Below are positions 7,065 through 26,393 of a stretch of DNA of 32,000 nt, one piece after another. Source of the DNA: an uncultured Candidatus Saccharibacteria bacterium (GTDB lineage Bacteria > Patescibacteriota > Saccharimonadia > Saccharimonadales > Saccharimonadaceae). A program made the translations under genes and the position numbers. Position 1 is the first letter of the stretch. Each line of letters starts with the position of its first letter. Below the pieces are notes generated by a model. The model ran no database searches, was not told the DNA's origin, and saw only the letters and a program-made list of their open reading frames with translations. Location: the NCBI GenBank assembly GCA_964475295.1, contig CAYYWC010000006.1:1-32000 (forward strand), written 5' to 3'.

Positions 7065-7655
7065 CTATTGAATACGGACACGTCGCTGCGGAGGCACAAC
7101 TTTTGCAGCCTTAACGCGCGCAATATCAGGCCCTGAAGCGGTACGCGCACCACTCAAGCGGCGCAAGACAATCTTAAGCTGAGATGCATATGTGTGCTTA
7201 CCGCTGATCACAATGAACGGATCCGCATCCTTAAGTGGCGTGAATTTCTTTATAGCAGTATCGTACACAGCCGCAGAGACACCTTGCTTGAGTGCCCGCG
7301 CTCGTGACGTAGCAGTGTCCGTTTGCACCCATACAAAAAGTGGTTCATAGCCAGCCTTACGTATCTGCTTCTCAAGATTTTTTCGAGATACTTGCGTTGT
7401 CATGTCGCCCTCGTATAAAACTGTTGCGCCTGTCTTCATCATCTGATCAAGCATCAAATCAGCAACACGCTGCACAATCACCTCTTCATCCTTTGAAAAG
7501 GTTGGCTCGTTAAATAGCTCACCCCTGACGGCACCCCAGCTTACGATTGGTGCCGAGAATGTTTTTGCAAAGTGTTCCGCAAAAAAACTTTTTCCCGAAC
7601 CAGGTACACCTACCATGATGACAACATGCGGCACTGCTAAACTCAACGACTTCAT
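7065..7655 (-). CDS. P-loop kinase (AAA_33 / zeta-toxin / PNK-like fold)
   Basis: Track ORF 7065..7793 trimmed to ATG 7655 (MKSLSLAVPHVVIMVGVPGSGKSFFAEHF), which puts the Walker A motif right after the start. The longer form would overlap the divergent glgB start and adds only low-complexity hydrophobic sequence. Confidence 0.65.
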   Translation of the reverse strand: MKSLSLAVPHVVIMVGVPGSGKSFFAEHFAKTFSAPIVSWGAVRGELFNEPTFSKDEEVIVQRVADLMLDQMMKTGATVLYEGDMTTQVSRKNLEKQIRKAGYEPLFVWVQTDTATSRARALKQGVSAAVYDTAIKKFTPLKDADPFIVISGKHTYASQLKIVLRRLSGARTASGPDIARVKAAKVVPPQRRVRIQ

Positions 7656-7728
7656 GACGATAGTATAGCAGATGTTTGACAGATACACCATGACGCTCAC
7701 ATAAGCATAAGCTGGTATACTAAAGACC

Positions 7729-13825: not shown

Positions 13826-13902
13826 TGGTGGAGCATATCGGATTTGAACCGATGACCTCTTCCATGCCATGGAAGCGCGCTAGCCAACTGCGCCAATGCC
13901 CC
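13826..13902 (-). tRNA. tRNA-Ala, anticodon GGC, CCA encoded
   Basis: The reverse complement folds as a cloverleaf: GGGGCAT TG GCGC AGTTGGCTA GCGC G CTTCC ATGGCAT GGAAG AGGTC ATCGG TTCAAAT CCGAT ATGCTCC A CCA. It has a 7-bp acceptor stem with the G3:U70 alanine identity pair, a GGC anticodon in a 7-nt loop, and a T-loop TTCAAAT. Confidence 0.9.
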
Positions 13903-13984
13903 GTCAGGTATTCATTCTAACAGACCAGTACCCTATAATACAGCCCCGTCGACCAACAACTGATCATATGATTGATAGGCCAAG

Positions 13985-14527
13985 CTACTTTAGCCCATCC
14001 TTCATTACATCAACTGCGCGTTGACGTGATGAGTAACGCCAATACTTCTCCCCCTCCATTTCGGCACACGTCAAAGACTCTCCATTCGGTATGACTATTG
14101 TGTCATATCCCCATCCGTTCGTACCTCGTTGCTCATGCGAGATAGTACCGTCCACTCGACCCACAAAAACCTGAGCACCATTTTCGTCACAGTACGCCAT
14201 CGCACACTCCATGTAGCAATTACGATTCTCCGCATCACCAAGCATATCGAGTAAGCCATCACAGCCTACCTCAACAATGAAGTGTTTAATAAGCGCACCA
14301 GGCAGCGAACCCCACTGTTCAAACGTTAAGCCCGCATCGTCAACAAGCACGGGTCTTTGTAGTTTTTCATATGCCTCAATCGCCTTGTGCTTCACAACCT
14401 CAGCAACATCCATAGATTGAATTTCAGTCAGCTCTATGTCAGAACGGTTCAACTCGACTCCAAGGAGCAGGCCAATGTCCTTTACTTTATTAGGATTGCC
14501 TGTTACAAGAGCAATATGCTGTTTCAT
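13985..14527 (-). CDS. rdgB: RdgB/HAM1-family non-canonical purine NTP pyrophosphatase (ITPase)
   Basis: Trimmed to ATG 14527 (MKQHIALVTGNPNKVKDI). Ham1 pattern with VLVDDAGL and PGALIKHF. Confidence 0.75.
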   Translation of the reverse strand: MKQHIALVTGNPNKVKDIGLLLGVELNRSDIELTEIQSMDVAEVVKHKAIEAYEKLQRPVLVDDAGLTFEQWGSLPGALIKHFIVEVGCDGLLDMLGDAENRNCYMECAMAYCDENGAQVFVGRVDGTISHEQRGTNGWGYDTIVIPNGESLTCAEMEGEKYWRYSSRQRAVDVMKDGLK

Positions 14528-14607
14528 ATACTTGCATTGTAGCACGAAGATTGCGTCAATGTTCGTATCTGCACTGAATCAATCGTATCTTCCTGTATAA
14601 TTACATC

Positions 14608-14997
14608 ATGATCGACTGCCCATTCTGCCTAGAAAACAATCTACTTAGAGTTAATATCGTCTACGAAGATAGCTTGTGGTATTTTACTGATCTAGATCCT
14701 GAAGAAGAAAGTAATTCAGGAATGGCCATAACCAAGCGTCATATTGCAACACCATTTGATATCAATCCAGATGAATGGGCCGCGCTACACGAACTACTGC
14801 CTAAATTTAGAGCAATGATCGACACAAGAGAGTCGCCAGATGGCTATAACATAGGGTGGAACGTCGACCAAGCAGGCGGACAAACCATCCCACATGCGCA
14901 TTTACACATTGCAGCACGATATAGCGACGAAGAACTTGCCGGTAAAGGTATGCGATATCATTTCAAGGGTTTTCGGAATAAGAGAAATAAGATATAG
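14608..14997 (+). CDS. HIT (histidine triad) family nucleotide hydrolase/transferase
   Basis: 129 aa. Histidine triad IPHAHLHIAAR (HxHxHxx) near the C-terminus. Confidence 0.8.
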   Translation: MIDCPFCLENNLLRVNIVYEDSLWYFTDLDPEEESNSGMAITKRHIATPFDINPDEWAALHELLPKFRAMIDTRESPDGYNIGWNVDQAGGQTIPHAHLHIAARYSDEELAGKGMRYHFKGFRNKRNKI

Positions 14998-15127
14998 GCG
15001 ATACAAACTTTTAGTAGTTTTACAGCATCTCGGCAGAAGCCAAAGGATAATCACCGAACCTATTGCGGTATAGTATCTTTCTCGGGATGAGATGACTATC
15101 AAGTACGATAGGGTTTGCAATAAATGA

Positions 15128-15706
15128 TCACTTACTAATCTCTCGGAGAACCAGATCTCGTAGGATCTCGGATTTATTCTTGCCGGTGATGTGCGCCTGA
15201 TACTTTAAGTAGGCGTTAATCTCTGGATTTATAAAGAAGTTAAAACGCATGTCTTTTTTATGAATCTTATTTTCGTTAATAAACGCCCCTATTACTACAC
15301 GAAGACTATCCGTGTCATATCGCTTAACAGTAGCAAGACTATCGAAATCAGGGCTGATACCATTGCCAAAACTCGTATTGGTAGATAAGGCGTCTTTGCG
15401 TATCAGGATTAGCACTGGCTTCTTAAGCTGGACCGCAGTGGCTATTTGATACCCGACAGAGAGACTTTCCTCTGTCGCTTCTACAATGACAATGTCAGCC
15501 CTAGCGAGTATTCGAAGGTCCTTTTTAGTAGATATCCACCAGTTTATTTCATCAAAATATTTAGATGATCTAGCCATTTCGTATTCTTTGTCCAGCCGCT
15601 CCCTAGTCAGGGTATTCCCAGACTCTGTAATAATGTCAAGAATCTCGCGCAATTGCTCATAGTCCCTATCGAGGGCGTGCTTTACGGCTGCGAAATGTAT
15701 AATCAT
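15128..15706 (-). CDS. nucleoside 2-deoxyribosyltransferase-like (NDT/SLOG-type Rossmannoid) domain fused to a C-terminal ribbon-helix-helix
   Basis: 192 aa. The core LARADIVIVEATEESLSVGYQIATAVQLKKPVLILI matches the NDT-like pattern (aD.vva....S.G...E.g.A...gKPv..l). The last 40 aa or so, MRFNFFINPEINAYLKYQAHITGKNKSEILRDLVLRE, has the strand-helix-helix pattern of CopG/Arc-type RHH domains. Confidence 0.5.
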   Translation of the reverse strand: MIIHFAAVKHALDRDYEQLREILDIITESGNTLTRERLDKEYEMARSSKYFDEINWWISTKKDLRILARADIVIVEATEESLSVGYQIATAVQLKKPVLILIRKDALSTNTSFGNGISPDFDSLATVKRYDTDSLRVVIGAFINENKIHKKDMRFNFFINPEINAYLKYQAHITGKNKSEILRDLVLREISK

Positions 15707-15747
15707 ATAATATTCCCCTTGGAGAGAAATAAGCTTATAATAATCGC

Positions 15748-16206
15748 ATGAATAGAGTGCTATGCCGAGACATTAATGGTAGAGTCCATATCGTAACCAA
15801 GTAAGACCTGGTAAAAAGAACGTCAATATATGGGGTAATAGAGAGCGTAAAGGGTGTACTACTCGTTAGAGATAGAACAGCCGTCAACGACAAATGGGAT
15901 CTACCAGGAGGGGGTGTTGAGCCGGTAGAAAAGCTGCTTGATGCCCTGGAGCGTGAAATTAAAGAGGAAACCGGACTTTATCTTATCGGCAAACCTACAA
16001 AGATATGCGATTTTACCGAATTTTTCTATGATGTCGAGTCAGAAACTGGCTGGGAGTCAACTCGACACTTCTATAAAGTGGAGTATAAAGGCGACCCTGT
16101 TATGGATGGTAACCACGACGATATCGTCGATGCTCGATACTTCAGGAAACCCCTGCCTGACGATAAGGTCGCCCCGGTTGCCCACATGATTATCAATATG
16201 ATCTAA
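15748..16206 (+). pseudogene. NUDIX hydrolase interrupted by an in-frame TAA (or an N-terminally truncated gene using a non-canonical start)
   Basis: Missed by the track. ATG 15748 reads MNRVLCRDINGRVHIVTK, then TAA at 15802-15804. The same frame continues DLVKRTSIYGVIESVKGVLLVRDRTAVNDKWDLPGGGVEPVEKLLDALEREIKEETGL (a complete Nudix box, GX5EX7REUXEEXGU) to TAA at 16204-16206. There is no ATG, GTG or TTG between the internal TAA and the Nudix box; only CTG at 15808. Confidence 0.65.
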
Positions 16207-16421
16207 CGTTGTAGGTGATGGCTTAAGTGATCGATCGCCTCACCCCTACTTCTTCTACAGCCAGCCCTATGCTATGGTGCTATATAACTCCAACCCAGTC
16301 AGTAGACTACTCTAATTAGAGCCTAGCTCAGCACACCCTTGCCCTAAAAATAAATAAACTGGAACCATTCTCCTCTCTTTCCTACTTGGCAGGGCTTACA
16401 GGACGATTACCAAACCTATTG

Positions 16422-16430
16422 TGATATAAT
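16422..16430 (+). promoter_or_regulatory. extended -10 promoter (TGaTATAAT) giving a leaderless or near-leaderless ASCH mRNA
   Basis: TGATATAAT at 16422-16430, with the ATG at 16440 only 9 nt after the hexamer. No Shine-Dalgarno sequence lies in between. Confidence 0.4.
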
Positions 16431-16439
16431 ATAAAAAAT

Positions 16440-16778
16440 ATGAACATTCACCAACTACAACTTGCAACTACACCATTTAATGCTATTACTTCTGGCGTAA
16501 AAACTATTGAATCACGACTTTATGACAAAAAGCGCCAACTCATTCAAATCGGCGATACTGTTGATTTTACCAACCGCGAAGCTCCAGATCAGACGGTTTC
16601 CGTAAAAGTCATCGGTCTACTTCGCTACAAAACATTCCACGACTTATTCACGCACAATGATCCGTCTAAATTTGGTGGAGAAAGTGTCGAGTGGCTCGAA
16701 AATCAAATCAACGAATTCTATTCCATCAACGAGCAAAGCCAAGACGGTGTCATTGGCATAGAGTTTGAGCTGATTTAA
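16440..16778 (+). CDS. stand-alone ASCH (ASC-1 homology, PUA-like) domain protein
   Basis: 112 aa. PFNAITSGVKTIESRLYDKKRQLIQIGDTVDF, followed by ...YKTFHDLF... and GVIGIEFELI. This is the typical ASCH pattern F..I.sG.KT.E.R..d.kr..i..GD.i.f. Confidence 0.8.
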   Translation: MNIHQLQLATTPFNAITSGVKTIESRLYDKKRQLIQIGDTVDFTNREAPDQTVSVKVIGLLRYKTFHDLFTHNDPSKFGGESVEWLENQINEFYSINEQSQDGVIGIEFELI

Positions 16779-16793
16779 CACCCTAGTGACTAG

Positions 16794-16822
16794 TTGCGAT
16801 TGTAGCACAGTCATGTTATAAT
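16794..16822 (+). promoter_or_regulatory. sigma70-like promoter upstream of the GC-rich GNAT-ASCH gene
   Basis: TTGCGA (16794-16799), a 17-nt spacer, then a perfect TATAAT (16817-16822). GGAGGT lies 6-7 nt before ATG 16899. Confidence 0.5.
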
Positions 16823-16898
16823 AGTAATAGTCTCATAACCCTGTGAGACGTTCCTCTGCTAGGTCGCAAAATCCTAGCAATCAATTTGGAGGTGTACT

Positions 16899-18242
16899 AT
16901 GACCGCATCAACGGTCATTAACGACGTCGTCATTCGCTCCGCAGGAGCTGACGACTTCGAGTGGGTCGCTGATCTCATGGTTCGGGCGCTCAGTCCGTTC
17001 TATGACGGCGACCACCGTGCACACGCACGGCGCATTTTCGATACACACATGGAGGGAGGTATCGACCGTGTCGGTCACTTCTCGGCTGGACAGTACATGT
17101 TCATTGCCGAACAGGACGGGCAGCCGGTCGGACTAATCCACGTCGTGGAGAAGAAGCAAGAGACGGTAAAGATCAGTCCGCTGATCGTCAGCACCGACTA
17201 CCGTGGGAAGCTGGGAATCGGAAGCATGCTGCTCAGGCACGCTGAAGACTTTGCCCGCGACCTCGGTGCTCGGCAGCTGTACTGCACCGTCGCCTCGCCG
17301 AACCAGAAGGCGCTGGGGTTCTTCCTCCGGAGGGGCTTCCGCATCACCGGAACGGCGAAGGATCACTACAAGCAGGGCATCGACGAGCACATGCTGTACA
17401 AGCAGCTGGTCGATGAGCCGGGTTTCGACTCGCCCAACGTTTCAGTGATCCCCTTCGACGAGGAAGCGCACGCTGATGGTGCGCGCGACCTCATCCTTTC
17501 GCAGATGAGTAGCGTCTTTCGCGGTGTGGACGACGACTGGGTTGACGCCCTATACGCCGGCTACAAGCGAAAGGAGCTTGGCGACGTTAATGCCAAGTTC
17601 AAGATCATCTTCACTGCCGAGTGTGGCGGTGAGGTGGTCGGTATCGCCGGTGCTACGCCCAAGAAGGGGCAGCCCATCAAGCTGATGCCGCTCGTGGCGA
17701 AGTCGGAGGTAGCGTTCGAAGCGCTCGTCATTGATCTTCAGGGGCTACTGATGGACTACGGTCACAAGCTATACGTTCACTTGGTTCCTGAGCCGTGGCA
17801 GGTCGCCTGTCTCCAGCGCCATGGCTGGACACTGGAAGGCGTGTTCCCTGGCGGGTACGCACCGAACAGCGTCGTGCAGCAGTGGGGACTCAACTTCAAC
17901 AAGGAGGGAGCAACCGTGCGTAAGATGCGCATCAAGCGTCCGTATTTCGATGAAATCATGTCGGGTCGTAAGACCTTGGAGGTTCGCGTCGGATACGACA
18001 ACATCAAGCGCCTGAAGGCTGGTGAGCTATTGCAGCTCGAGACTGGACACACCTCGGGTGTGGTGCGGATCAAGTCGATCCGCGTCTACGACAACTTCGC
18101 CGACATGTTGGCGACGGAGCCGTGGCGCGAGATCGTTCCGCAGGTCGACAACCAGACGACCGCCCTCCGGCTCCTGCGCGAGATCTACCCCGCACACAGG
18201 GAACGCCTCGGCATCCACGTCATCGAGGTTGAAAAGCAGTAG
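16899..18242 (+). CDS. tandem GNAT N-acetyltransferase domains fused to a C-terminal ASCH domain
   Basis: 447 aa. GNAT 1 has motif A, STDYRGKLGIGSMLLRHAEDFARDLGARQLY...ALGFFLRRGF. A second, degenerate GNAT-like domain covers about residues 185-330. The C-terminus is MRIKRPYFDEIMSGRKTLEVRVGYDNIKRLKAGELLQLE...YDNFADML...GIHVIEVE, the same ASCH subfamily as the upstream gene. GC content is markedly higher than the flanks. Confidence 0.8.
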   Translation: MTASTVINDVVIRSAGADDFEWVADLMVRALSPFYDGDHRAHARRIFDTHMEGGIDRVGHFSAGQYMFIAEQDGQPVGLIHVVEKKQETVKISPLIVSTDYRGKLGIGSMLLRHAEDFARDLGARQLYCTVASPNQKALGFFLRRGFRITGTAKDHYKQGIDEHMLYKQLVDEPGFDSPNVSVIPFDEEAHADGARDLILSQMSSVFRGVDDDWVDALYAGYKRKELGDVNAKFKIIFTAECGGEVVGIAGATPKKGQPIKLMPLVAKSEVAFEALVIDLQGLLMDYGHKLYVHLVPEPWQVACLQRHGWTLEGVFPGGYAPNSVVQQWGLNFNKEGATVRKMRIKRPYFDEIMSGRKTLEVRVGYDNIKRLKAGELLQLETGHTSGVVRIKSIRVYDNFADMLATEPWREIVPQVDNQTTALRLLREIYPAHRERLGIHVIEVEKQ

Positions 18243-18329
18243 AACAACGACACAGGGTTCGCACCCCAAGATGGAGTAATCCAGCTTTATAATGCGAGTG
18301 ACTTGGGCTAGTGTCACTGATACCTGATT

Positions 18330-18562
18330 TAAGGTGTCGAACAACTAGCCTGTTTTTCTTTGGAATTATTTTTACCTAAAATATAAATAACACACCTTCG
18401 ACAGTGTGTTATTTATATTGGCAGAGCATTATTGTACAGGTTAGAACCCTGCTAATCACGGCATAGTTGGACTACAGACCTGTTAAATGTCCAGTGTATC
18501 CTCAGTCCAGCCAAGCAAGAGACGGGAACCCTTACCTCGTTCCTATATAGTTTGACACCTTA
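18330..18562. repeat. 13-bp inverted repeat pair (12/13 match) bracketing the hairpin
   Basis: TAAGGTGTCGAAC at 18330-18342. The reverse complement of 18550-18562 is TAAGGTGTCAAAC. The two arms enclose 207 bp of non-coding sequence. Confidence 0.4.
18381..18418. terminator. perfect 15-bp-stem hairpin, a possible bidirectional terminator
   Basis: ATATAAATAACACAC cttcgaca GTGTGTTATTTATAT. It sits in a 420-bp non-coding gap between the convergent genes ending at 18242 (+) and 18665 (-), and is flanked by A/T runs. Confidence 0.5.
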
Positions 18563-18664
18563 GGGGGGTGGGTAAATTCCGAGGATAATACTTATATATA
18601 ATGACAAGCGACAGGAAATTTTTAAAAAATGGAAACCCAGCGTAAAGCAACTACTCCTTTGAGT

Positions 18665-18934
18665 CTATGAGCATTGGCCTACTGCCCAGTTCTCAAGCTC
18701 GGGCGTTACTGGCTCATAATGACTTGCCGTCGCCAGTGTTCGTTCTACGCATTCATCAAACTGGTCAAGCTTTGCCTCAATCTCGGCTCCATCGTCATGG
18801 CGCAGCTCGGCTTGGATAGCCTCATAATCTGGCTCTGGCGGGGGTGGCGTCATAATACCCGTTATGAACCATATGGCCGCAGCCGCACAGACGATAATTG
18901 TGCACCACATTTTAAAGCTTTCCCAGTCTTCCAT
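18665..18934 (-). CDS. small single-TM protein of unknown function
   Basis: Track ORF 18665..18985, probably starting at ATG 18934 (MEDWESFKMWCTIIVCAAAAIWFITGIM). One TM helix, then an acidic tail. No recognisable motif; it may not be a real gene. Confidence 0.35.
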   Translation of the reverse strand: MEDWESFKMWCTIIVCAAAAIWFITGIMTPPPPEPDYEAIQAELRHDDGAEIEAKLDQFDECVERTLATASHYEPVTPELENWAVGQCS

Positions 18935-19138
18935 GCCTGCTCTTCTCTTTACTGAATCAGTTTGGGCACCCCTTGGCGATGTCATCTAACTCTTTATCAT
19001 ACCTTGCTTGAGTATCTGGCGATTTCGCAATTTCTTCGTCCATTTTAATCGCCCCCTCAACGCCATGCCTATCAATATACTTAGAGTACAAACATACAAT
19101 ATGGGCTGTATTATCTGGGCTATTCTGCCGCACCGACT

Positions 19139-19345
19139 CTAGGTATTGCTCTTTCGTAATAATTGGTGCCGTGATACTTGATGGCTCAACTGCTCTAGGC
19201 TCAATGTAAAAACGTCATCCCAAAGTGTCTGGCACTGTTCTTCTTCCCAAGCATAGGGTCGCTGGTAGTCGGGAATTAAAAATACCGATTTCTTGTCTGT
19301 CAACAGCTCCCTAATGGTTTTCTGGTCTACAGTTATTTTAGACAT
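19139..19345 (-). pseudogene. DUF262 (GmrSD-type, ParB-like nuclease N-terminal domain) stump, truncated after about 46 conserved residues
   Basis: MSKITVDQKTIRELLTDKKSVFLIPDYQRPYAWEEEQCQTLWDDVF is the canonical DUF262 N-terminus (IPxYQRxYxW...LxDD). The ORF stops at 68 aa, whereas full-length family members are several hundred residues. Another frame stays open downstream for about 85 codons but does not continue the domain. Confidence 0.75.
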
Positions 19346-19369
19346 ATACTCTCCTGCATGCTCTTACGT

Positions 19370-20056
19370 TTATTTATTGGCCTCGGCGGCGCTTCTTTCT
19401 TTTGGGTATTGTATTGTCACATACAAAAAATCCTGACCGTTGAGAGCGCTATAGGCGGCTTCTTCATTATAGGTAATATCCTCAGCCATGAGCGATCCTA
19501 TATATCTAGCAGTGTCGTTGAGTAGCTGGTATTTTTCACCCTGGTTTTTTGGTTTCTGCACCGAGCTTAGTTCGATCAAATCTTCGAGGAGCGCTTCGCG
19601 GTACAGGGCAAAATTATGGCAATCACGAGCAGCCAAAATATAGCCAAATGTCGAAGGGCTCAATTTAAACTCGCCCGAAAAGAACGAGTGTAACAGGTTA
19701 TTCACGCTATTAATCTCTTCGCCAACTGACTCAGGCTTCGCAGTCCACATGTATGATAGTGCTTTCGCTGCAACTGGTTTTTGTTCGAGTTGTTTGTGCA
19801 AATTATCTAAGTCTATCCAATGACAAAGTGAACCATTGTTGGGATTATTTTTTTGCAACAATTCTACAATTTGTAGAGCGTTTGAATCGGTCAACGCGCC
19901 GTGTGTTTTGAGTTCATCGTTGAGTTTTGGCAGTATATCCCACTTGTACTGTTCGTCCCACTCCGTTGTTTCATTGCTGGATCGACGCCTGTAGTAATCA
20001 TCTTTATTTTTCTCGTAAAAAGCTCTTAGGGAGAGTTTATTGATTTCTGCTGTCAT
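19370..20056 (-). CDS. hypothetical protein resembling the N-terminal (non-ATPase) region of McrB-like AAA restriction proteins
   Basis: 228 aa. EQYKWDILPKL... and later KLSPSTFGYILAARDCHNFALYREALLEDL recall the YKW... and s.lsyiL...dp..ypiy pattern seen N-terminal to McrB-type ATPase domains. No P-loop is present. The functional call is low confidence. Confidence 0.45.
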   Translation of the reverse strand: MTAEINKLSLRAFYEKNKDDYYRRRSSNETTEWDEQYKWDILPKLNDELKTHGALTDSNALQIVELLQKNNPNNGSLCHWIDLDNLHKQLEQKPVAAKALSYMWTAKPESVGEEINSVNNLLHSFFSGEFKLSPSTFGYILAARDCHNFALYREALLEDLIELSSVQKPKNQGEKYQLLNDTARYIGSLMAEDITYNEEAAYSALNGQDFLYVTIQYPKERSAAEANK

Positions 20057-20142
20057 GAATATATTGTATCTGTTTTACGGTATTTAGGCCAGAATACTCG
20101 AGTTAGTTCAAGTGTTGGTACTGGACGTGTCCGTATCGACAT

Positions 20143-21237
20143 TTATGCCTCTTCGGCATAGGCTTGCAGCGTAACCAGCTCTTTGGCCATTTGATCTGGT
20201 GTGGTGCGTAGATCTATCTCAATCCATGAGTTGAGTACGTTGTGCTCTAGCAGGTCAATCTTCTCGCCAGTGAAACAATCGTCATCGAACCAGAGGAACG
20301 GCTTGCCGAAGTCGATCGCTTCGGTCTTTTTCAAACTCCAGGTGACTGGCTTGAACTTCTCAAGCCATGGACGGAGATCTTCTGTCGACGCACGATTTAG
20401 ATACTCGATGGCATGTGCCGGATCACCATCCATACAATGAGTCGTCAGCCAATACACATCGAAGTGCTCGACGGCGTACTTGATGAAATCTACCGCGCCA
20501 ATAGATAAGTTTTCTTCGTTTACTAGCAAGACGCCGTCGATGTCGAGGTAGATATTACTAATTAGCTGTGATGTAAGATTTCCGATTGCCACACCTCGCC
20601 CCTTCGGCTGATGAAATAAACTCTTGCTCGGCGGCAACCCCTTCCATGCCGAGCGCGGACAATTAAGTCGCGCATCCTTCGTCGGGTCGTTGAATACTAC
20701 CACCTTCCATAAAAACCTGCATACCTGGTAGACATATCCCCTCTCGGGGAACTGTCGCTCCAGCCCCCATAGTGCTCGTTTATATAGCCTCTGACGACAT
20801 AGGCTCATGAAATCCCCCTCAAGATCAAGCTGTAATACATAGGCGGGTCGGGCATAATTATCGCTCACCGATCGAATATGATGATCGAGCCGGCGAATAC
20901 CATATAGCGTACCCTTGCCCTTCCGGCAACTGTAGTTGTCTTCGATAAACCGTGCATCCCACCATTCATTTACTTGATTGAAAAGAAAGTGGTGCACAAT
21001 GCGATCACGAAAATCAGCTGCGAAAATCTCACGCTTCACCGGCTTATGTATGATAAACGCCGTAGACGGACGGGGCTGATATATTCGATCATGGATCTCT
21101 TTCGCTAGTACAGACAACTCCGTCGCAGCGACCTTATCAAACCCCACCACCTGCAGCGAGCGAGTCTTGCCTTGCCGCGCGCGCCGATAGGCGCGCTCTA
21201 GTTCCTGCTGGAGCCATTTCATTCGCTGTGTTGTCAT
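20143..21237 (-). CDS. chimeric ORF: DGR-type reverse transcriptase fingers/palm (motifs 1-4, no YxDD) fused in-frame to a HAD-like phosphatase domain
   Basis: Residues 1-231 carry RT motifs: AYRRARQGKTRS, HKPVKREIFAADFRDRIVHHFL, SCRKGKGT, YVLQLDLEGDFMSL (motif A Asp) and GVAIGNLTSQLISNIYL (the I/LGxxxSQ form typical of DGR RTs). From residue 232 the sequence is DIDGVLLVNE...YWLTTH...FLWFDDD...IEIDL, which has HAD motif I (DxDG) and an acidic motif IV. It is paralogous to 24308..24702. No YxDD, motif 6/7 or thumb is present. Confidence 0.8.
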   Translation of the reverse strand: MTTQRMKWLQQELERAYRRARQGKTRSLQVVGFDKVAATELSVLAKEIHDRIYQPRPSTAFIIHKPVKREIFAADFRDRIVHHFLFNQVNEWWDARFIEDNYSCRKGKGTLYGIRRLDHHIRSVSDNYARPAYVLQLDLEGDFMSLCRQRLYKRALWGLERQFPERGYVYQVCRFLWKVVVFNDPTKDARLNCPRSAWKGLPPSKSLFHQPKGRGVAIGNLTSQLISNIYLDIDGVLLVNEENLSIGAVDFIKYAVEHFDVYWLTTHCMDGDPAHAIEYLNRASTEDLRPWLEKFKPVTWSLKKTEAIDFGKPFLWFDDDCFTGEKIDLLEHNVLNSWIEIDLRTTPDQMAKELVTLQAYAEEA

Positions 21238-21377
21238 GCTATAGTATCACACCCCCTAGCGAGCAGTCGACGCGGTAGGTTCGGTCGTGGTCACTCCTTC
21301 ACGCTCACCTCGCTTTGTAGGCTAGAGAAATTACCCCCTCCGGAGTCTCGCCCCTCTAGGGCGCAACCCCATCTGGA

Positions 21378-22520
21378 TTAATTTAAGAGACAGCGAACCC
21401 CGGCCCCGAAGTTGCGATTGTCGTAGCCATCGCCCGGGTAGAAATCGCTCGGATCGAAGCTCGCGAAGAAGGCGTAGTCCGGGTGGTCTGGGCTAGCAGA
21501 AGCAGACCACAAGGTACCCGCGTCGCCCTGAAAGCCAAAACCGCCGTACCAGCGGCCTGAGAACGACCCTTTAAATGGTCCAGACGGTTGCCACTTTGCG
21601 ACACTCGGACCGCCCGCACCTGTCCCGCCAAAGGCCACATCCAGCTGCCAGAGGTCGCTGCTTGGAGATCCACTGGTTGGAAGTCGCCAGTTAGCTGGAC
21701 AGATGGAATACTGGGCATTGCCGGAAGTAAAGGTGGTTCGCGTTTCCCCTGCGGTGGCTGCTGGGAAGTTGTAAAGATAGCCGTAGTTGGTAGCACCTGA
21801 GCCGGTGTCGCCAGGGACGGGGCCGTAGGCACGTGGGTTGTCATAGTCAGCCGTTCCGCCGGTTGTCAGCTGTGGCAGGGTGAAATTGCTGGCTACGTTG
21901 CTATCGGCTGGTGTGAGCGTGATTGACCCGCTGGTACTCCCGAGCTTAAGGTTGGTGAGCATCCAGCAGTTGCCGTCGGCAAGCTTGGCGACTTCGTAGT
22001 ATTGGGTGGTAGGACCACGGGTGTCGGCTAGGGAGATGATGGCATCAGCATTAGTGCCAGTGTAGGTATCGAGAGCGTCACATTGAGCTGCGGTAAAGTT
22101 TTGCATGGTAGCAAGTTCTGGTTCAGGTGGAGTGGTTGGGTTAGTGGGGTTGGTGCCGTCGCCTGGAGCTGGAGCTTCGGGACGATTGAGAGGGTCGGTG
22201 GTGCAGATAATAGTGCCGTTAGCTTCATAGTAGCAGCGCGACTCACCGGCGGCTGCTTGACCCTTGCCTGCACCAGTGGCAGTACCGAGGGTGCTCTGGG
22301 AAGAAGCACTATCGCTGGCCGGCGTAGCTGCGTTGCTGGCCTGCACAGCGGTATCCGAGCCGCCAGCAGCGGAGACGGCGGCGCGGTGCTGGATAAGTGT
22401 GAAGGCGGCCAGAAGGATGATAACGAGAGCAACGGTGGCGATGATAATACTACGGGGCTGATGTGAGATACGACGTAGTATAGTAGTTAGCGCAGCAGCT
22501 GTTGTAGTTATTTGTTTCAT
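21378..22520 (-). CDS. secreted/anchored protein with a low-complexity Ala/Thr/Pro linker and a C-terminal FISUMP (Fibrobacter succinogenes major paralogous, C-lectin-like) domain
   Basis: 380 aa. N-terminal anchor IIIATVALVIILLAAFTLI, then an A/S/T/G/P-rich linker. FISUMP hallmarks follow: LADTRGPTTQYYEVAKLADGNCWMLTNLKLG, CPANWRLPT and the terminal GAGVRCLLN. GC-rich. Confidence 0.75.
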   Translation of the reverse strand: MKQITTTAAALTTILRRISHQPRSIIIATVALVIILLAAFTLIQHRAAVSAAGGSDTAVQASNAATPASDSASSQSTLGTATGAGKGQAAAGESRCYYEANGTIICTTDPLNRPEAPAPGDGTNPTNPTTPPEPELATMQNFTAAQCDALDTYTGTNADAIISLADTRGPTTQYYEVAKLADGNCWMLTNLKLGSTSGSITLTPADSNVASNFTLPQLTTGGTADYDNPRAYGPVPGDTGSGATNYGYLYNFPAATAGETRTTFTSGNAQYSICPANWRLPTSGSPSSDLWQLDVAFGGTGAGGPSVAKWQPSGPFKGSFSGRWYGGFGFQGDAGTLWSASASPDHPDYAFFASFDPSDFYPGDGYDNRNFGAGVRCLLN

Positions 22521-22597: not shown

Positions 22598-23365
22598 GTG
22601 CAGTGGTGGGTGCACGATGTTATCTGGGGAGAGTATAGCATAGGCGGGATGAAGGTGTCTAGGGGAAACACGAAATACACCAAAAAACCTAGCCATATTC
22701 TAGAAAAACTTTCTAACTACAACGAAAAGGTAAGATTCGACGGTGTTTTACACTGTAGAAAATGTGATTACTTTTATGCCGACAAGCACAATTTCAATGT
22801 TTTCCTTAAGCACAACAAGCACGATGTAGCAGCACCGCGAAAAGAAATACAAATTCGTAACAATAAAATCTATTACCCTAGTTTTTGGAATGGCGCCCCG
22901 GATTCAGTACTTAGTCGCTACGGCTATTCTGCAGATGGCACGCTGCAGCAAAAGTCTAGGAGAAAGGTAATCTCCTACATAGTTGGAAGTAAGAGGATTA
23001 CTCCAGATGATTATACGGAAAACAAGCTACGCTACGACCAAGAAATAAGCCGTGTAAAACAGCAGATCGAACGGCTAGAAGAAGCCGATAAAAGCTTCTA
23101 CGTTACGGCTTCGTATCTGTTACAGCTATTCAAGCACGGCGAAAAGATTTTTGAATTAGCAAGTATAGAAGAAAAGCGTGAACTTCTGAAACTCGTGCTA
23201 TCGAACCTCGAATTAAAAGACAAAACGGTCCGTTTTACACCTAACGAACCGTTTGCTACTGTACTTAAATTGTCTGAACGTTCTACTTGGCAGGGGTACA
23301 TGGATGAAGATAGAACTTTTTACTCTGTTAGTGAAAACGCTATTTTAGGAGGCAAAAATGTTTAG
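22598..23365 (+). CDS. protein with a Cys/His-rich N-terminal region and a C-terminal half matching the coiled-coil/C-terminal domain of large serine recombinases (no catalytic resolvase domain)
   Basis: 255 aa from GTG 22598; alternative start ATG 22649 (MKVSRGNTKY). The C-terminal EEADKSFYVTASYLLQLFKHGEKIFELASIEEKRELLKLVLSNLELKDKTVRFTPNEPFATVLK...WQGYMDEDRTF matches the conserved tail of large serine recombinases (ekAD..yy.....ll.la......f......eKr.ll..vlsNl.l.......pf..l...W......RT). The N-terminus has HCRKCDYFYADKHNFNVFLKHNKH (CxxC...HxxH). The catalytic Ser domain is absent. Confidence 0.6.
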   Translation: MQWWVHDVIWGEYSIGGMKVSRGNTKYTKKPSHILEKLSNYNEKVRFDGVLHCRKCDYFYADKHNFNVFLKHNKHDVAAPRKEIQIRNNKIYYPSFWNGAPDSVLSRYGYSADGTLQQKSRRKVISYIVGSKRITPDDYTENKLRYDQEISRVKQQIERLEEADKSFYVTASYLLQLFKHGEKIFELASIEEKRELLKLVLSNLELKDKTVRFTPNEPFATVLKLSERSTWQGYMDEDRTFYSVSENAILGGKNV

Positions 23366-23804
23366 GTTAAATTCATCCTCTCTTTATGACCAGTCTACAT
23401 TTTATGATAGGTTTTATAAGGATCTTCGGAGTGCAAAACGCCGCGTAGTTATAGAAAGCCCGTTCATTACTCAGCGTCGTTCTACGCCCCTACTCGCCAC
23501 CATATCAAGGCTCAAAAAGCGCAGAGTCGAGGTTATAGTGAATACAAAACCGATCGAGGAGCATGATTCACAATATCAAGATCAAGTGGCTGTAGTTGTC
23601 GAAATGCTACAGAATCTGGGCGTGAGGGTGTTATTTACAATAGGTCACCACAGAAAGATCGCTATCATCGATGACATACTCTACGAAGGTAGCTTGAATA
23701 TACTGTCTCAAAACGATAGCTGTGAGCTGATGCGTCGCATAGATGACGCCTCATCGGTACAAGAGATACTACGCTTCACAAGACTGGAAAAATGGTGCAA
23801 ATGA
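23358..23804 (+). CDS. single-domain phospholipase-D-family (HxK) nuclease
   Basis: 148 aa. GHHRKIAIIDDILYEGSLNILSQ is the HxK(x)4D...GSxN PLD/Nuc motif. Its start overlaps the upstream stop by 8 nt. Confidence 0.8.
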   Translation: MFRLNSSSLYDQSTFYDRFYKDLRSAKRRVVIESPFITQRRSTPLLATISRLKKRRVEVIVNTKPIEEHDSQYQDQVAVVVEMLQNLGVRVLFTIGHHRKIAIIDDILYEGSLNILSQNDSCELMRRIDDASSVQEILRFTRLEKWCK

Positions 23805-23805
23805 T

Positions 23806-24315
23806 ATGATAGGTAGTATGGAATATCTAGGGTTAAGTGCCGGAGTCTTATTTGGTCTTGCGTACCTACACTTTTCACAAGCTATCGACTGGATTCTTGT
23901 CGTGCTTCACTATGCGTTCTTTAGGTCAAAAGATAGTTTCTACGGGTTGTATGACAATACTGAGCAAGAATCGGTTTATGAGCATCTGAAGTACGCAGAA
24001 ACAATAGCTGTAAAAGACTATGCCGATTATCTGCGCATACACCAGTCAGCTCGACCTTCGGCGTATAAGCGATTCAGAAAATATTACGACACGCTATTGC
24101 GAGTGATCTTGGTTCGTGTTTTGCCTATCACACTGCTGCCAGCTATCTTGTTCTGGTCTAATTGGTATTACTACATCGGAGGCATACTCATAGCATTTAC
24201 TGTATTGGCACTCTATGCGATTATCGTAAAACCACGCGGTGCTGGTGCCCGTAAGCGACTGATGGTGTTTGCTGTGATGCGAGACTACCTAAAGGACAGC
24301 AATAAGTCTAAATAA
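23806..24315 (+). CDS. membrane protein (2+2 TM) of unknown function
   Basis: Track ORF 23743..24315 trimmed to ATG 23806 (MIGSMEYLGLSAGVLFGLAYLHF), 1 nt after the PLD stop. There are two N-terminal and two C-terminal hydrophobic helices around a charged middle. Confidence 0.55.
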   Translation: MIGSMEYLGLSAGVLFGLAYLHFSQAIDWILVVLHYAFFRSKDSFYGLYDNTEQESVYEHLKYAETIAVKDYADYLRIHQSARPSAYKRFRKYYDTLLRVILVRVLPITLLPAILFWSNWYYYIGGILIAFTVLALYAIIVKPRGAGARKRLMVFAVMRDYLKDSNKSK

Positions 24316-24702
24316 TCTCCGCTACGTCTTTTAGCTGATTCGGATTTTTCTTTAAGTCAATCAAGGTAAAATTATCTGTTGCGTTGTGCTGCTCAAGCAC
24401 CGTCAGCTCATCTTCCCACAGATCATCGTCTAGCCATATAAACTTCTCCGAGAAGTTTAAGCCGTCCGTTTTCATTTCATTCCAGACGGTCGGCTTAATT
24501 TTGTCGAGCAGCGGCACGGTCTCCGGCTTGAGATGTGGCGCAAGTACTTCTTTAGTTCTGTTCTCGCCGCGCCAGTTGTGAGTCGTTAGCCAGTAGGTAG
24601 AATCAGGATATGCTGCACGTCTTGCAAGAACTCATCCGCATAATTTGTGGCGCTATCTTCGTTTGCTAGTAGTACTCCGTCAATGTCTAAGTAAACATTC
24701 AT
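24308..24702 (-). pseudogene. stand-alone HAD-like gene, frameshifted near 24612; paralog of the C-terminal domain of the RT chimera
   Basis: ATG 24702 reads MNVYLDIDGVLLANEDSATNYADEFLQDVQHILILPTG and then stops. Another frame, offset by one nucleotide, continues AAYPDSTYWLTTHNWRGENRTKEVLAPHLKPETVPLLDKIKPTVWNEMKTDGLNFSEKFIWLDDDLWEDELTVLEQHNATDNFTLIDLKKNPNQL (the track shows only the last 69 aa). It is collinear with residues 228-355 of the RT-HAD ORF. The start lies 3 nt after the stop of the NUDIX-SAHH-like gene. Confidence 0.7.
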
Positions 24703-24704
24703 GG

Positions 24705-26393
24705 CTAAGCATCATATTTATAAATATAGTCAACCCAGGCATCAGCTATTGCATTCTGCCTAGCCTTATCGTTTGTTTCCAGCTTGTGCTCCTTTTGCTT
24801 ACTGTCCCTACGCTCATATAGTGAAATAACACTACTCACCAACTCACCTTGTACTAGATAGATATACTTATCAACTGCCGCAGAGTACAAGAAGTTAACG
24901 GCATTACCATCATTCAATAGATGGAAGTGGTGACCTCTCTTTGAGTAGCGTGTAATATCTTTGGTAATTTTATCTTTTGAGTACTCGCTATCAATAAACC
25001 GCAAATCAAATTCATCATCTGACGATGTGACGGACGCCAAGAACGCGCCTCGCTTCAGATCTCTTAGTCTCAGGATATCTATTGCTTGTGACCCTGTCGC
25101 ACAGAAAACGACGTCGCTATTGCGCAGTAGATGACCAATAGGTACTACTCTTGCTCCATCGCACGAAGCCTGGACAGCACGCATAGCGTCAATCTCACAG
25201 ACATACGGCTGGACGCCACGCTGCTGTAAGTACTGAAATATGCCTCTTCCTATTTTTCCGTAACCAATAATGCCGCAGCTTTTGTAGGTAATGAGTGTAT
25301 TTAAGTCACGCAGTACCGTCTCGGCAGCATGAGCCACTCCGTTGCCAACCAATTGATCTTCAAAGCTCTTCAGCGGACTGCGAGCAACGGATATAACACG
25401 GAGATTATCCGGCATATTTTTTTCGTATTTTTGATGGCCATTTTCTGTATCTTCGACGACACCAAGTAGCTTCTTGCCTAGTTTCTTCTTAATTGAGGTG
25501 ATGCTCTCGCTAAAGTAGCCACCGATATCTACCATGCAAACATTGTCATATTTATCGAGGTAATTCGATATTTCGTCGGGGTTGCTCGTGATGCTTTCTC
25601 GAGTGAACTGACTGAGGATTGGTATATCTTTATCTGTTAGAAGAGCTTTGGTTCTTTTATTGATTGAGTTGGGCTTTGGGATTATTCCAATAAGATTGAA
25701 GTTTTCTTGCAAGCTAAGAATATAGCTCTCTGAGCTTGGGATAATATGCGACACTGCTATAACCGATATTTCTTTCCCTTGGTTATCTGCAATTGATCTA
25801 AAAAAATCACGTGGATTTGGCTCCAGCAAGCCCTCAATTCTATCGACAATAACCGTGAAGTGTGGGTCGTCTGCAAAAACCTCCCAGTCGACCCACTGGA
25901 AGCCATTTGATTCGTTAAGATCAACATTTATGTCAGACTTTTCAGTAATGTACAGATAACGAAAGTCGTGATGGTAATGTCCAGGCTCATTTTTGCGTGG
26001 ATTTTCTGGTATATAGTGGCTGTCGATATGGAACGGCACAATCGGATGATTACGCAAGACAGGCTGAAGGACTAACTCATCGGGTTTCAGTCCAGTTTCT
26101 TCCTCTACTTCTCTCAGTGTAGCCTCTAATGGCGAACCGTCTTCCTTGTCAATGTGCCCTCCGGGTTGTAGTAGCTTGCCGAGCGACTTATGCTGCAAGA
26201 GAAGTACCTGTCGTGTAAACTTGTTGATTACGAAAGCACTTGCAGTAATATGCCCGACAAAGTTCTTGCGTGATGTTATATCCTGATCATTCTGCTCGAG
26301 CTGTTCCGCAAGTAGCTTAAGGTTATTGACATCTTCAGTGTGGTTATCTATGTATTTCTCGTATAGTTCTTTAATCTGCATTAACTTTCCCAT
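24705..26393 (-). CDS. fusion of an N-terminal NUDIX hydrolase with a complete S-adenosylhomocysteine-hydrolase-like (NAD-binding) module
   Basis: 562 aa. Nudix box GGHIDKEDGSPLEATLREVEEETGL. The C-terminal 350 aa or so are collinear with the SAHH fold: GVVEDTENGHQKY (compare GvsEETTTGvhRL), VISVARSPLKSFEDQLVGNGVAHAAETVLR (compare inVNDSvTKskFDNlYGcreSl.dgi.R), and CGIIGYGKIGRGIFQYLQQRGVQPYVCEIDAMRAVQASCDGARVV...SDVVFCATGSQ (compare vvGYGdVGKGcA..lr..GA.V.vtEiDPi.AlQAamdG..V...DIfvTaTGn). Confidence 0.8.
   Translation of the reverse strand: MGKLMQIKELYEKYIDNHTEDVNNLKLLAEQLEQNDQDITSRKNFVGHITASAFVINKFTRQVLLLQHKSLGKLLQPGGHIDKEDGSPLEATLREVEEETGLKPDELVLQPVLRNHPIVPFHIDSHYIPENPRKNEPGHYHHDFRYLYITEKSDINVDLNESNGFQWVDWEVFADDPHFTVIVDRIEGLLEPNPRDFFRSIADNQGKEISVIAVSHIIPSSESYILSLQENFNLIGIIPKPNSINKRTKALLTDKDIPILSQFTRESITSNPDEISNYLDKYDNVCMVDIGGYFSESITSIKKKLGKKLLGVVEDTENGHQKYEKNMPDNLRVISVARSPLKSFEDQLVGNGVAHAAETVLRDLNTLITYKSCGIIGYGKIGRGIFQYLQQRGVQPYVCEIDAMRAVQASCDGARVVPIGHLLRNSDVVFCATGSQAIDILRLRDLKRGAFLASVTSSDDEFDLRFIDSEYSKDKITKDITRYSKRGHHFHLLNDGNAVNFLYSAAVDKYIYLVQGELVSSVISLYERRDSKQKEHKLETNDKARQNAIADAWVDYIYKYDA

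Follow-up and report, generated by a model that had tools for sequence, protein, structure and literature searches.

An open reading frame that joins the N-terminal half of a DGR reverse transcriptase to a HAD-like domain in Saccharibacteria

The chimeric reading frame and its two halves

The window, the entire 32-kb stretch of DNA that was analysed, carries on its minus strand an open reading frame (ORF; 20143-21237) whose 364-residue product consists of the N-terminal half of a DGR reverse transcriptase (RT) followed by a complete HAD-like domain. A preliminary description had singled out this ORF without naming a strand, and it is real. An alternative start at Met6 (21222, minus strand) yields a 359-residue product, which is the form called in the Logan assembly discussed below. 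Three parts can be distinguished on the minus strand. Codons 1-227 (20558-21237) are RT only and include motifs 1-4, with the motif-A residue Asp138 at 20824-20826 and IGNLTSQ at 20566-20586, but lack motif 5 (YxDD), motifs 6-7 and the thumb. A 16-nt junction tract (20542-20557; T-AAT-ATC-TAC-CTC-GAC, encoding N-I-Y-L-D) is common to both parents. The remainder, including the stop codon (20143-20541), is HAD-like only and keeps DxDG (D232, D234), WLTTH and FDDD. At the DNA level, RT homology stops at 20542/20543 and HAD homology starts at 20557. Both homologies break inside 20542-20557, in line with the earlier remark that the NIYLD codons (about 20542-20556) could be assigned to either parent.

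Residues 1-232 correspond to the N-terminal half of a DGR RT from Saccharibacteria, the relatives of which are ~360 residues long and 74-78% identical. The closest RT homologues span 63-64% of the chimera query, and identity ends right after SNIYLD(232), where the homologues continue with QLDRFV...GRYVDDF and the window ORF with IDGVLLVNEE. RT motifs 1-4 are present as first described, including LQLD(138)L and the SQ-variant motif IGNLTSQ (residues 218-224), which aligns to IGSLTSQ of PDB entry 8ub7. YxDD is indeed absent, but its expected position is ~20 residues past NIYLD and not immediately after it, as had been supposed. The best PDB match of the RT half (E = 1.8e-14) is the 328-residue 'Reverse transcriptase' chain of 8ub7, which we take to be the bRT of Bordetella phage BPP-1. 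Chimera residues 12-152 and 212-232, containing motifs 1-4, align to chain residues 17-152 and 175-195, including IGSLTSQLFANVY; however, the chimera has about 40 extra residues between motifs 3 and 4, and chain residues past 195 have no counterpart in it. The PADLOC RT model matches protein residues 10-232 at profile positions 8-194 of 263, Pfam RVT_1 has no match at E ≤ 0.1, and no RT C-terminal half was found anywhere in the 32 kb. The (I/L/V)GxxxSQ motif 4 that defines the DGR RT clade (PMC3521204) is present, the best PDB match is of DGR type, and kin loci carry A-biased TR/VR pairs (template repeat and variable region). The features of a catalytically complete RT (motif 5 YxDD, motifs 6-7, thumb) are missing. 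Only one of the three catalytic aspartates is left, and the remnant cannot polymerise. Because the nearest RT is 78% identical and synonymous sites are saturated, dN/dS is unusable for the remnant, and deviations in conserved columns were counted in its place. The remnant departs from the consensus in 1 of 112 columns conserved at ≥95%, the substitution being Y142D, which adjoins the motif-A nucleotide pocket.

Residues 228-364 are a full copy of a usually stand-alone HAD-like protein of about 140 residues. The C-terminal 137 residues are 89-91% identical to stand-alone proteins of 135-150 residues, which begin M(x0-3)N-I/V-Y-L-D-I-D-G; the nearest, L021, is 96% identical at the amino acid and 93% at the nucleotide level. 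The complete small HAD-like domain proposed earlier is borne out, with DxDG, WLTTH and FDDD kept and all 53 family-conserved positions intact. YLDIDGV, corresponding to HAD motif I, is invariant in the family, and domain residues 2-4 form a strand in the AF2 model of the HAD half (pLDDT 93). The WLTTH, K-T and FDDD columns, conserved at ≥95%, follow in the order expected of motifs II (S/T), III (K) and IV (DD), and this order together with the modelled secondary structure suggests that they are those motifs. The best PDB and BFVD matches of the model are HAD-superfamily proteins, at Foldseek E values of at least 0.07 and a TM of about 0.5. Pfam matches of the HAD half have E values of at least 0.025; profile searches gave weak HAD_SAK_2 matches in 34 of 66 family members and weak Hydrolase_6 matches in 22 of 66, and neither Pfam nor NCBIfam includes a model for the family. 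The N-terminal strand ending in DxDG and the subsequent T-T, K and D-D-D motifs in the expected order resemble capless (C0-type) HAD phosphatases (KdsC/YrbI, SCP1/FCP1-type CTD phosphatases, Pfam HAD_SAK_2), although all matches of the HAD half to these are below significance.

The HAD-like family comprises 673 representatives at 50% identity and is common in mobile and defence islands of Saccharibacteria. Compared with L020, the HAD half has a dN/dS of 0.08, a value that mostly predates the fusion, and the domain, being intact, may still be functional. It no longer has a start codon or a ribosome-binding site of its own, which leaves two ways of producing it, as the C-terminal end of the chimera or by initiation at an internal GTG (V216), on a transcript that is probably shared with the upstream target gene. 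A second, divergent HAD-like paralog lies on the minus strand at 24308-24702. It begins with MNVYLDIDG at 24702 as first described, but it shares just 39% identity and does not form an intact stand-alone gene: a frameshift near 24618-24625 leads to a stop after 39 codons, and the rest is found in a different frame at 24308-24517.

The DGR locus and the downstream module

Directly upstream of the RT remnant is an intact DGR target gene of 380 codons (21378-22520, minus strand). Its product shows a hydrophobic N-terminal segment on inspection of the translation by eye and a weak, below-cut-off match to FISUMP/Fib_succ_major; an exact look-up of the protein returned no record. The 3' end of the gene contains a VR (21385-21562, minus strand) that aligns to the TRs of related loci, with 68.5% identity to positions 1-175 of the TR of L012. 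Of the VR-TR mismatches, 23 of 56 fall on TR adenines, an enrichment given that adenine makes up 23% of that TR. In nine relatives, TR and VR pair over 106-184 nt, and their mismatches lie almost all on TR adenines (15-25 at adenine sites, 0-2 elsewhere). These relatives share the locus order target(VR)-RT-TR, with the TR ~250 nt downstream of the RT, and all have YVDD. In the 32-kb window no TR, that is, no second copy of the VR, was detected, and there is no TR/VR pair. With neither an RT C-terminal half nor a TR in the window, the VR is orphaned in the target gene, and it would be frozen unless another DGR of the genome acts on it in trans. Several DGRs can coexist in one genome, as in a relative MAG with three (L012, L017 and L018).

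A GC-rich hairpin just past the target stop codon (21341-21371, minus strand), statistically indistinguishable from shuffled sequences, may serve the DGR in target recognition or act as a terminator. A promoter-like site with an extended -10 (22632-22661, minus strand; a consensus match at 10/12) precedes the target gene and is a candidate promoter for that gene and the chimeric ORF. A 255-residue ORF at 22598-23365 may be a fragment of a serine recombinase, a lead based on a weak phrog_95 match (E = 3e-4); pairwise comparison gave nothing significant.

Downstream, the HAD-like sequence belongs to a 1354-nt segment (19203-20556, minus strand) that is gapless and collinear with L020 and has a breakpoint at each end. 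In L020 the corresponding module, of mobile or defence type, consists of a stand-alone HAD gene, ORF228 and a full-length GmrSD gene, of which the window segment contains the 5' end. ORF228 (19370-20056, minus strand), the companion gene of the module, encodes a protein identical to that of L020 at 227 of 228 residues and differs at 6 of 684 nt (99.1% identity). The truncated GmrSD_N gene (19139-19345, minus strand) has 68 codons, the first 47 of which are those of the L020 GmrSD (585 residues). It is cut at the second breakpoint (19203/19202), 1354 nt from the first. Identity to L020 along the segment is mosaic: 88% in the HAD gene, 99.1% in ORF228 and 100% in the GmrSD remnant. Past the second breakpoint, the sequence showed no homology to the distal flanks of DGRs. 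A reading of 13.9-20.5 kb as an island at a tRNA-Ala beside a tRNA-abutting DGR was discarded: the tblastx match to L015 reflects generic tRNA similarity (tRNA-Pro), and that comparison gave no conserved synteny.

Uniqueness and reproducibility of the junction

The Logan assembly of SRR8449813 contains the same junction, with 100% identity over 7518 nt that include both breakpoints. The two assemblies were made with different software, and Logan assemblies use k = 31. Because an independent assembly is identical and the 16-nt tract is shorter than a de Bruijn overlap, mis-assembly of the junction is unlikely. No other instance was found: a degenerate junction pattern had no matches in GTDB representatives, JGI metagenomes or IMG/VR (positive control, L019), and no second RT-HAD fusion was found among 5.8 G protein clusters or 1.84 G representatives. 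No homologue match spans both halves of the chimera. The cluster at 90% identity has 73 members, and among the 15 listed the sole long protein is the window's own product; none of the best 150 HAD-family representatives has an RT N-terminus. The 364-residue product has no record in an exact look-up, whereas the 359-residue form and ORF228 are both on record. The preliminary description had reasoned that a fusion unique to this assembly, with YxDD retained in all homologues, would indicate mis-assembly or a recent deletion. This is what was found, and the independent assembly makes the former unlikely.

We regard it as quite improbable that the ORF is an assembly or amplification chimera of RT and HAD genes that in reality lie apart in the genome, each of them intact. 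The junction does lie on microhomology, as is common for amplification chimeras, and the second breakpoint is just 1354 nt away. Moreover, both junction assemblies may stem from one sample, which makes chimeric reads formally possible, and the frameshift in the second HAD-like gene could hint at poor sequence quality. Yet an identical 7.5 kb with both breakpoints was recovered by different software in two assemblies, from a shared tract too short for de Bruijn assemblers to join; the paralog frameshift lies outside any homopolymer, and decay at the locus is coherent, with GmrSD truncated and the TR missing.

Origin of the fusion and relation to known systems

In our view the RT-HAD ORF is very probably the wreck of a DGR, in which microhomology-mediated recombination fused the front half of an RT to a HAD-like gene. 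The fusion is ordinary genome decay, a one-off chimera and no new enzyme type. The ancestor would have had the normal layout of a target gene with VR followed by RT and TR. A crossover would have joined RT codons 228-232 (S-N-I-Y-L-D) to codons 2-6 of the HAD gene (M-x-x-N-I-Y-L-D-I-D-G), and the event would have removed the catalytic half of the RT (motifs 5-7, thumb), the TR and everything between. Since both genes read the crossover pentapeptide in one and the same frame, the chimeric ORF would be intact automatically. The earlier argument that 364 intact codons speak against decay therefore carries little weight, the more so if the event is recent. Of the two origins proposed in the preliminary description, the evidence favours recombination at short homology with loss of polymerase activity: the breakpoints lie in the 16-nt tract, YVDD and the TR are gone, the fusion is unique, and a suitable gene layout exists in L023. 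The other, a genuine RT-like-HAD architecture, is not supported, with no second example in protein clusters, GTDB, JGI or IMG/VR.

L023, a natural metagenome contig, carries TR, RT, SfLAP-like, FtsK-like and HAD genes on one strand. RT and HAD are separated by two genes, or 2.5 kb, and their NIYLD codons form a direct repeat, 10 nt of it exact, at a spacing of 2465 nt. Judged by its gene order, L023 illustrates a layout of the type needed before the deletion, although its RT is only 48% identical and its TR lies upstream of the RT. A direct ancestor with intact RT, TR and the same HAD allele at the same position was not found. No HAD gene lies within 10 kb at any of 11 related RT loci in GTDB genomes, and an RT upstream of HAD on the same strand was seen at only 1 of 80 HAD loci. 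With no ancestor, rare RT-HAD linkage and a divergent L023, a one-step 1354-nt insertion or a complex rearrangement is inseparable from two successive deletions.

Nevertheless, we infer a deletion in situ rather than insertion of a fragment. It is possible, if doubtful, that a 1354-nt module fragment (HAD, ORF228 and the GmrSD remnant) was captured through two illegitimate recombination events, as might follow DNA uptake, and replaced the RT 3' half and the TR in one step. Such an event would accommodate the two breakpoints that bound the module segment, the usual absence of HAD genes beside DGRs of this RT subfamily and the mosaic identity to L020. However, L030 has a HAD-containing defence island next to the same GNAT-ASCH genes, and the island may therefore be old at the window site. 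L023 also shows that RT-HAD synteny on one strand is possible, and the missing DGR-distal flank homology past the second breakpoint likewise speaks against insertion.

The deletion appears to be recent, as suggested by the number of deviations in the RT (1/112), the HAD half (0/53) and ORF228 (6/684 nt). That the RT remnant is conserved almost perfectly agrees with recency and would also agree with continued selection. The latter would be expected if the chimera were a selected two-domain protein in which the HAD phosphatase receives nucleic acid or nucleotides bound by RT fingers and a partial palm. The ORF is intact, and conserved positions are kept in both halves (111/112 in RT, 53/53 in HAD). 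Natural proteins also place the HAD-like domain C-terminal to FtsK_SpoIIIE, ADP-ribosylglycohydrolase, LRR and OGFr_N, and the domain thus tolerates N-terminal fusions. We nonetheless hold such a function to be highly improbable. The fusion occurs once in all collections searched, and recency explains the conservation equally well, the neighbouring ORF228 being 99.1% identical to L020. The remnant stops inside the motif-4 helix and lacks the motif-C hairpin needed to complete the palm sheet, which, judging from RT structures, makes independent folding doubtful. N-I-Y-L-D would also have to serve as HAD strand β1 according to the model, and the sole consensus deviation, Y142D, sits in the nucleotide pocket. 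Even less credence is due to the more speculative proposals that, in a defence-island setting, the RT remnant binds nucleic acid or nucleotides on behalf of an active HAD phosphatase, or that another DGR continues to rewrite the orphan VR in trans, making the locus a working 'remote target' with an exapted RT remnant.

Among known systems, defence-associated UG/Abi/DRT RTs likewise combine RT-related sequence with an unrelated enzymatic domain in one polypeptide, and the chimera lies in a defence-island neighbourhood (GmrSD; PLD-like and SNF2 in relatives). Those RTs, however, have kept their catalytic core and are seen repeatedly in different genomes, whereas the chimera lacks YxDD and is a single occurrence; its matches to PADLOC DRT/UG models are weak (E = 4.5e-4 to 3e-3). 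Parallels are found in the DiGReF survey of Schillinger et al. (2012), which describes DGR RTs truncated by transposon insertion, nonsense mutation or frameshift, as well as 'clearly truncated' SQ-motif RTs without TR/VR (PMC3521204). As in those cases, an RT of the (I/L/V)GxxxSQ clade has been cut short and a non-functional element lies beside a target gene. Here, by contrast, the RT is truncated by recombination into another gene, a mode absent from the passages of the survey that were consulted (PMC3521204), with an in-frame chimera as the result and the TR also gone. The intact counterparts are the cellular DGRs of Patescibacteria (CPR), DGR clade 2 being described as confined to that group (Roux et al. 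2021, PMC8144416). Saccharibacteria RTs from loci with the order target(VR)-RT-TR and adenine-specific TR/VR mismatches share 74-78% identity with the RT remnant. The window copy, a candidate member of clade 2, lacks motif 5 onward and the TR.

The locus is a clean, fully resolved example of the death of a DGR, with both parental gene types recovered, a layout of the required kind in L023, a 16-nt crossover microhomology and an orphan VR; it has little import for mechanism discovery. The HAD-like family, unannotated and defined here as a by-product, may merit its own study. For annotation, the lesson is that RT motifs 1-4 together with the SQ signature, even in an intact ORF, do not constitute evidence of a working DGR. 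More generally, where two genes share a peptide by chance, recombination at that site can produce frame-preserving chimeras that resemble designed fusions.

The two halves of the chimeric reading frame

The ORF at 20143-21237 (minus strand, 364 aa) is real, and the preliminary description of it, as a reverse transcriptase (RT) whose catalytic half is replaced in frame by a HAD-like domain, is accurate: RT identity extends to residue 232 and a complete HAD-like gene follows. Residues 1-232 are the N-terminal half of an RT of the diversity-generating retroelement (DGR) type. The 328-aa RT chain of PDB entry 8ub7 aligns to the chimera (E = 1.8e-14), with motifs 1-3 at residues 12-152 and motif 4 at residues 212-232 (IGNLTSQLISNIY in the chimera versus IGSLTSQLFANVY in 8ub7). 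A motif 4 of the form (I/V/L)GxxxSQ is described as a hallmark of DGR RTs, with QGxxxSP elsewhere (PMC3521204). The generic PADLOC RT model matches at profile positions 8-194 of 263 and no further, and Pfam RVT_1, a model that leans strongly on the motifs missing here, gave no match to the chimera. Searched against 5.8 billion protein clusters, the protein gave 3182 hits; the best 120 (~350-410 aa, mostly from Saccharibacteria/Patescibacteria, top identity 74-78%) all contain RVT_1 and cover just 60-65% of the query. Identity to the RT relatives is unbroken to S-N-I-Y-L-D(232) and gone afterwards, every aligned relative continuing Q-L-D-R-F-V...G-R-Y-V-D-D-F and the window I-D-G-V-L-L-V-N-E-E. 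At 112 columns conserved in at least 95% of 74 close RTs, the window differs once (family mean 1.4), at Y142D, four positions past the motif-A aspartate in the region of the nucleotide-binding pocket.

Searching each half apart, as had been proposed, separated the parents. The C-terminal 137 residues matched 840 proteins, and those listed are nearly all of 135-156 aa, without a Pfam domain, at up to 91% identity and 99% query coverage; a stand-alone copy on metagenome contig L021 is 96% identical to the HAD half in protein and 93% in DNA. Stand-alone proteins begin M-(0-3 residues)-N-I/V-Y-L-D-I-D-G. Given the coverage of both halves, the chimera joins 232 codons of one gene to the entire second gene minus its start. 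The family keeps YLDIDGVLL, WLTTH, K-T and FDDD, which follow one another as HAD motifs I-IV do, and none of 53 conserved columns is altered in the chimera. An AlphaFold model of the domain (66 sequences, mean pLDDT 93) has alternating strands and helices, with N-I-Y-L as the first strand. Foldseek matches to it in PDB and BFVD are mostly of the HAD superfamily (KdsC/YrbI, SCP1, TIM50, viral HAD hydrolases, a nucleotidase), none of them significant (E of at least 0.07, TM about 0.5), and Pfam signals for HAD_SAK_2 and Hydrolase_6 all lie below threshold. The label HAD-like is therefore reasonable but not proven: the motif order fits, but the fold and Pfam matches fall short of significance. 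This ~140-aa family (673 representatives at 50% identity, including P0375, P0389, P0387, P0356 and P0354 in alignment A3) is unannotated and is found in mobile and defence islands of Saccharibacteria. The domain's own start and ribosome-binding site are gone in the chimera. It can be produced solely as the fusion or, speculatively, from an internal GTG (V216), six bases 5' of which the sequence reads AAGGGG.

The junction and its occurrence

DNA similarity to RT loci stops at 20542/20543 and similarity to five independent HAD loci starts at 20556/20557, which places the crossover within at most 16 nt, T-AAT-ATC-TAC-CTC-GAC (20542-20557). Here the window reads AGT-AAT-ATC-TAC-CTC-GAC-ATC-GAC, the RT relatives AGT/AGC-AAT-ATC-TAY-CTN-GAC-CAR and the HAD start of L021 ATG-CAG-CCT-AAT-ATC-TAC-CTC-GAC-ATC-GAC. 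Both parent genes read this tract in one and the same frame, as the pentapeptide N-I-Y-L-D, and this by itself suffices to explain the uninterrupted ORF.

The Logan assembly of SRR8449813 contains the junction, both breakpoints and 7518 nt (window 13875-21392) at 100% identity, and calls the product from Met6 (359 aa). The adjacent gene ORF228 and the DGR target protein are also on record from a 332,912-nt contig (NCBI, JGI, ENA, GEM). An identity of 16 nt is too short to make a de Bruijn assembler working at k=31 join sequences wrongly; an origin from chimeric template molecules is possible. The independent Logan contig runs from 13875, inside tRNA-Ala, to 21392, where it covers just the last 8 nt of the variable region (VR); heterogeneity in the population, or a sequence like the template repeat (TR) at another place in the genome, could account for a graph break within the VR.

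The alternative that this is a genuine RT-HAD architecture finds no counterpart in the databases searched. A degenerate pattern for any sequence encoding T-S-Q-L-x-S-N-x-Y-L-D-I-D-G-V, which recovered the Logan contig as positive control, gave 0 matches in 185,579 GTDB species genomes, 241 million JGI metagenome records and IMG/VR. A HAD-family profile run against 1.84 billion representatives found 673 members, mostly of 130-150 aa; in some the domain naturally forms the C-terminal part of a fusion with FtsK_SpoIIIE, ADP-ribosylglycohydrolase, LRR or OGFr_N domains, and none is fused to an RT. At the 90% level the 359-aa product clusters with HAD proteins of ~140 aa (73 members, representative 141 aa); of these, 40 were read and 15 listed, and it is the sole long one of the 15.

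Remnants of the DGR and the surrounding island

Nine related loci share a canonical DGR order: target gene, a gap of 120-140 nt, RT, and a TR of 106-184 nt ~250 nt downstream, with TR/VR mismatches almost all at TR adenines (25 of 25 in locus L009, 23 of 23 in L016). In the window the target gene (21378-22520, 380 aa) lies upstream of the chimera, and the relatives' TRs align to its final ~180 nt (21385-21562), with mismatches enriched at TR adenines. A second VR copy, a TR and RT residues 233-364 were all sought within the 32-kb window and none was found, so the element has no template, its VR is orphaned, and of the three catalytic aspartates a single one remains. At L001, the locus of the closest RT (78%), VR 4929-5112 and TR 6542-6725 are only 72% identical and 32 of 53 mismatches lie off TR adenines, a pattern unlike that of the other relatives; it may be another decaying DGR. 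One Saccharibacteria-like MAG, JACKGS01, carries three DGR cassettes of this family (L012, L017, L018), which makes trans-complementation of an orphan VR conceivable in such genomes.

Directly downstream of the chimera are ORF228 (19370-20056, minus strand), without a match in Pfam, NCBIfam, PHROGs or PADLOC, and a 68-codon stub (GmrSD', 19139-19345, minus strand) left from a type IV restriction enzyme of the GmrSD/DUF262 kind. The exact ORF228 sequence is already on record, and a near-identical variant occurs on the 114.8-kb Logan contig L020, where positions 7200-8553 are gap-free and collinear with window 20556-19203 (95.3% identity). There the HAD gene stands alone (TTG start, 138 aa, its start overlapping the stop of a 171-aa ORF), followed by ORF228 (7700-8386) and a full-length GmrSD of 585 aa, among a serine recombinase, a Replic_Relax protein and more defence genes. 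The first 47 codons of GmrSD' are identical to the 585-aa protein, and homology breaks at 19203/19202. Collinearity and the two ends together make HAD-ORF228-GmrSD' a 1354-nt fragment with a breakpoint on each side. Its identity to L020 is mosaic: 88% for HAD (dN/dS 0.08), 99.1% for ORF228 and 100% for GmrSD'. ORF228 lies 25 nt upstream of GmrSD in L020 and, adjoining it, may be its uncharacterised partner.

Related HAD genes lie behind FtsK/SpoIIIE-like genes (L004, L021, L023) or within DUF2779-HAD-SNF2-GmrSD islands (L002, L003, L030). In L030 the island borders on the same ASCH and GNAT-ASCH genes that the window has at 16.4-18.4 kb, and this neighbourhood looks like an insertion site for islands. 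The ASCH and GNAT-ASCH (447 aa) block (16440-18242, plus strand) has 59% G+C in a region of ~45%, and its DNA is 84.5% identical to that of L030, where the island comes next. Upstream of the target gene on the opposite strand, a 255-aa ORF (22598-23365, plus strand) weakly matches the C-terminal part of a large serine integrase (E = 3e-4, phrog_95 476-564 of 651) and may be another gene fragment. A small PLD-like protein (23358-23804, plus strand; PLDc_2, MkoC/MkoB-like in PADLOC) has homologues near the DGR in several relatives (L008, L011, L013, L014, L017). A divergent HAD-like paralog (24308-24702, minus strand), 39% identical to the fused HAD, is frameshifted near 24618-24625, outside any homopolymer, which would fit a pseudogene as well as a sequence error. 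It starts 2 nt after the stop of a 562-aa gene directly upstream (24705-26393, minus strand) that joins an N-terminal NUDIX domain (E = 2e-12) to a C-terminal AdoHcyase_NAD-type Rossmann domain (E = 4e-18), an unusual pairing, possibly from a nucleotide-salvage or defence operon.

Origin of the fusion

Alone among 80 metagenome HAD loci, L023 has an AAC-rich TR, a DGR RT, SfLAP-like, FtsK-like and HAD genes, all on one strand. Its RT is complete (422 aa, YVDD, RVT_1 E = 1e-18), and the N-I-Y-L-D codons of RT and HAD form a direct repeat, G-AAC-ATC-TAT-[T/C]TA-GA (10 nt exact), 2465 nt apart. L023 is not the ancestor, since its RT belongs to another subfamily (48% identity); it shows that the layout needed for an in-situ deletion exists in nature. 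Instead of such a deletion, a single-step capture of the 1354-nt fragment is possible, and would fit the lack of a HAD gene within 10 kb at all 11 loci whose RTs belong to the same subfamily as the window's. The near-intact conserved columns in both halves point to a recent event, as do ORF228 and GmrSD', which are 99-100% identical to L020; these comparisons have no power to tell relaxed from continued selection on the RT remnant.

The first reading in the preliminary description, a fusion through short homology that killed the RT, holds: both homologies meet in the 16-nt tract, and the RT C-terminal half and the TR are gone. Most probably, a DGR was inactivated here when it recombined, through microhomology, with a neighbouring island gene, in a stretch that also holds a cut-short GmrSD and a frameshifted HAD paralog. 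A crossover in the shared N-I-Y-L-D codons would join the RT front to the HAD gene, and would leave the DGR without the RT catalytic half and the TR, its VR orphaned. Truncated DGR RTs are already documented in PMC3521204. The chimera, with its frame preserved, is a neat variation on these known truncated DGR RTs rather than a new architecture.
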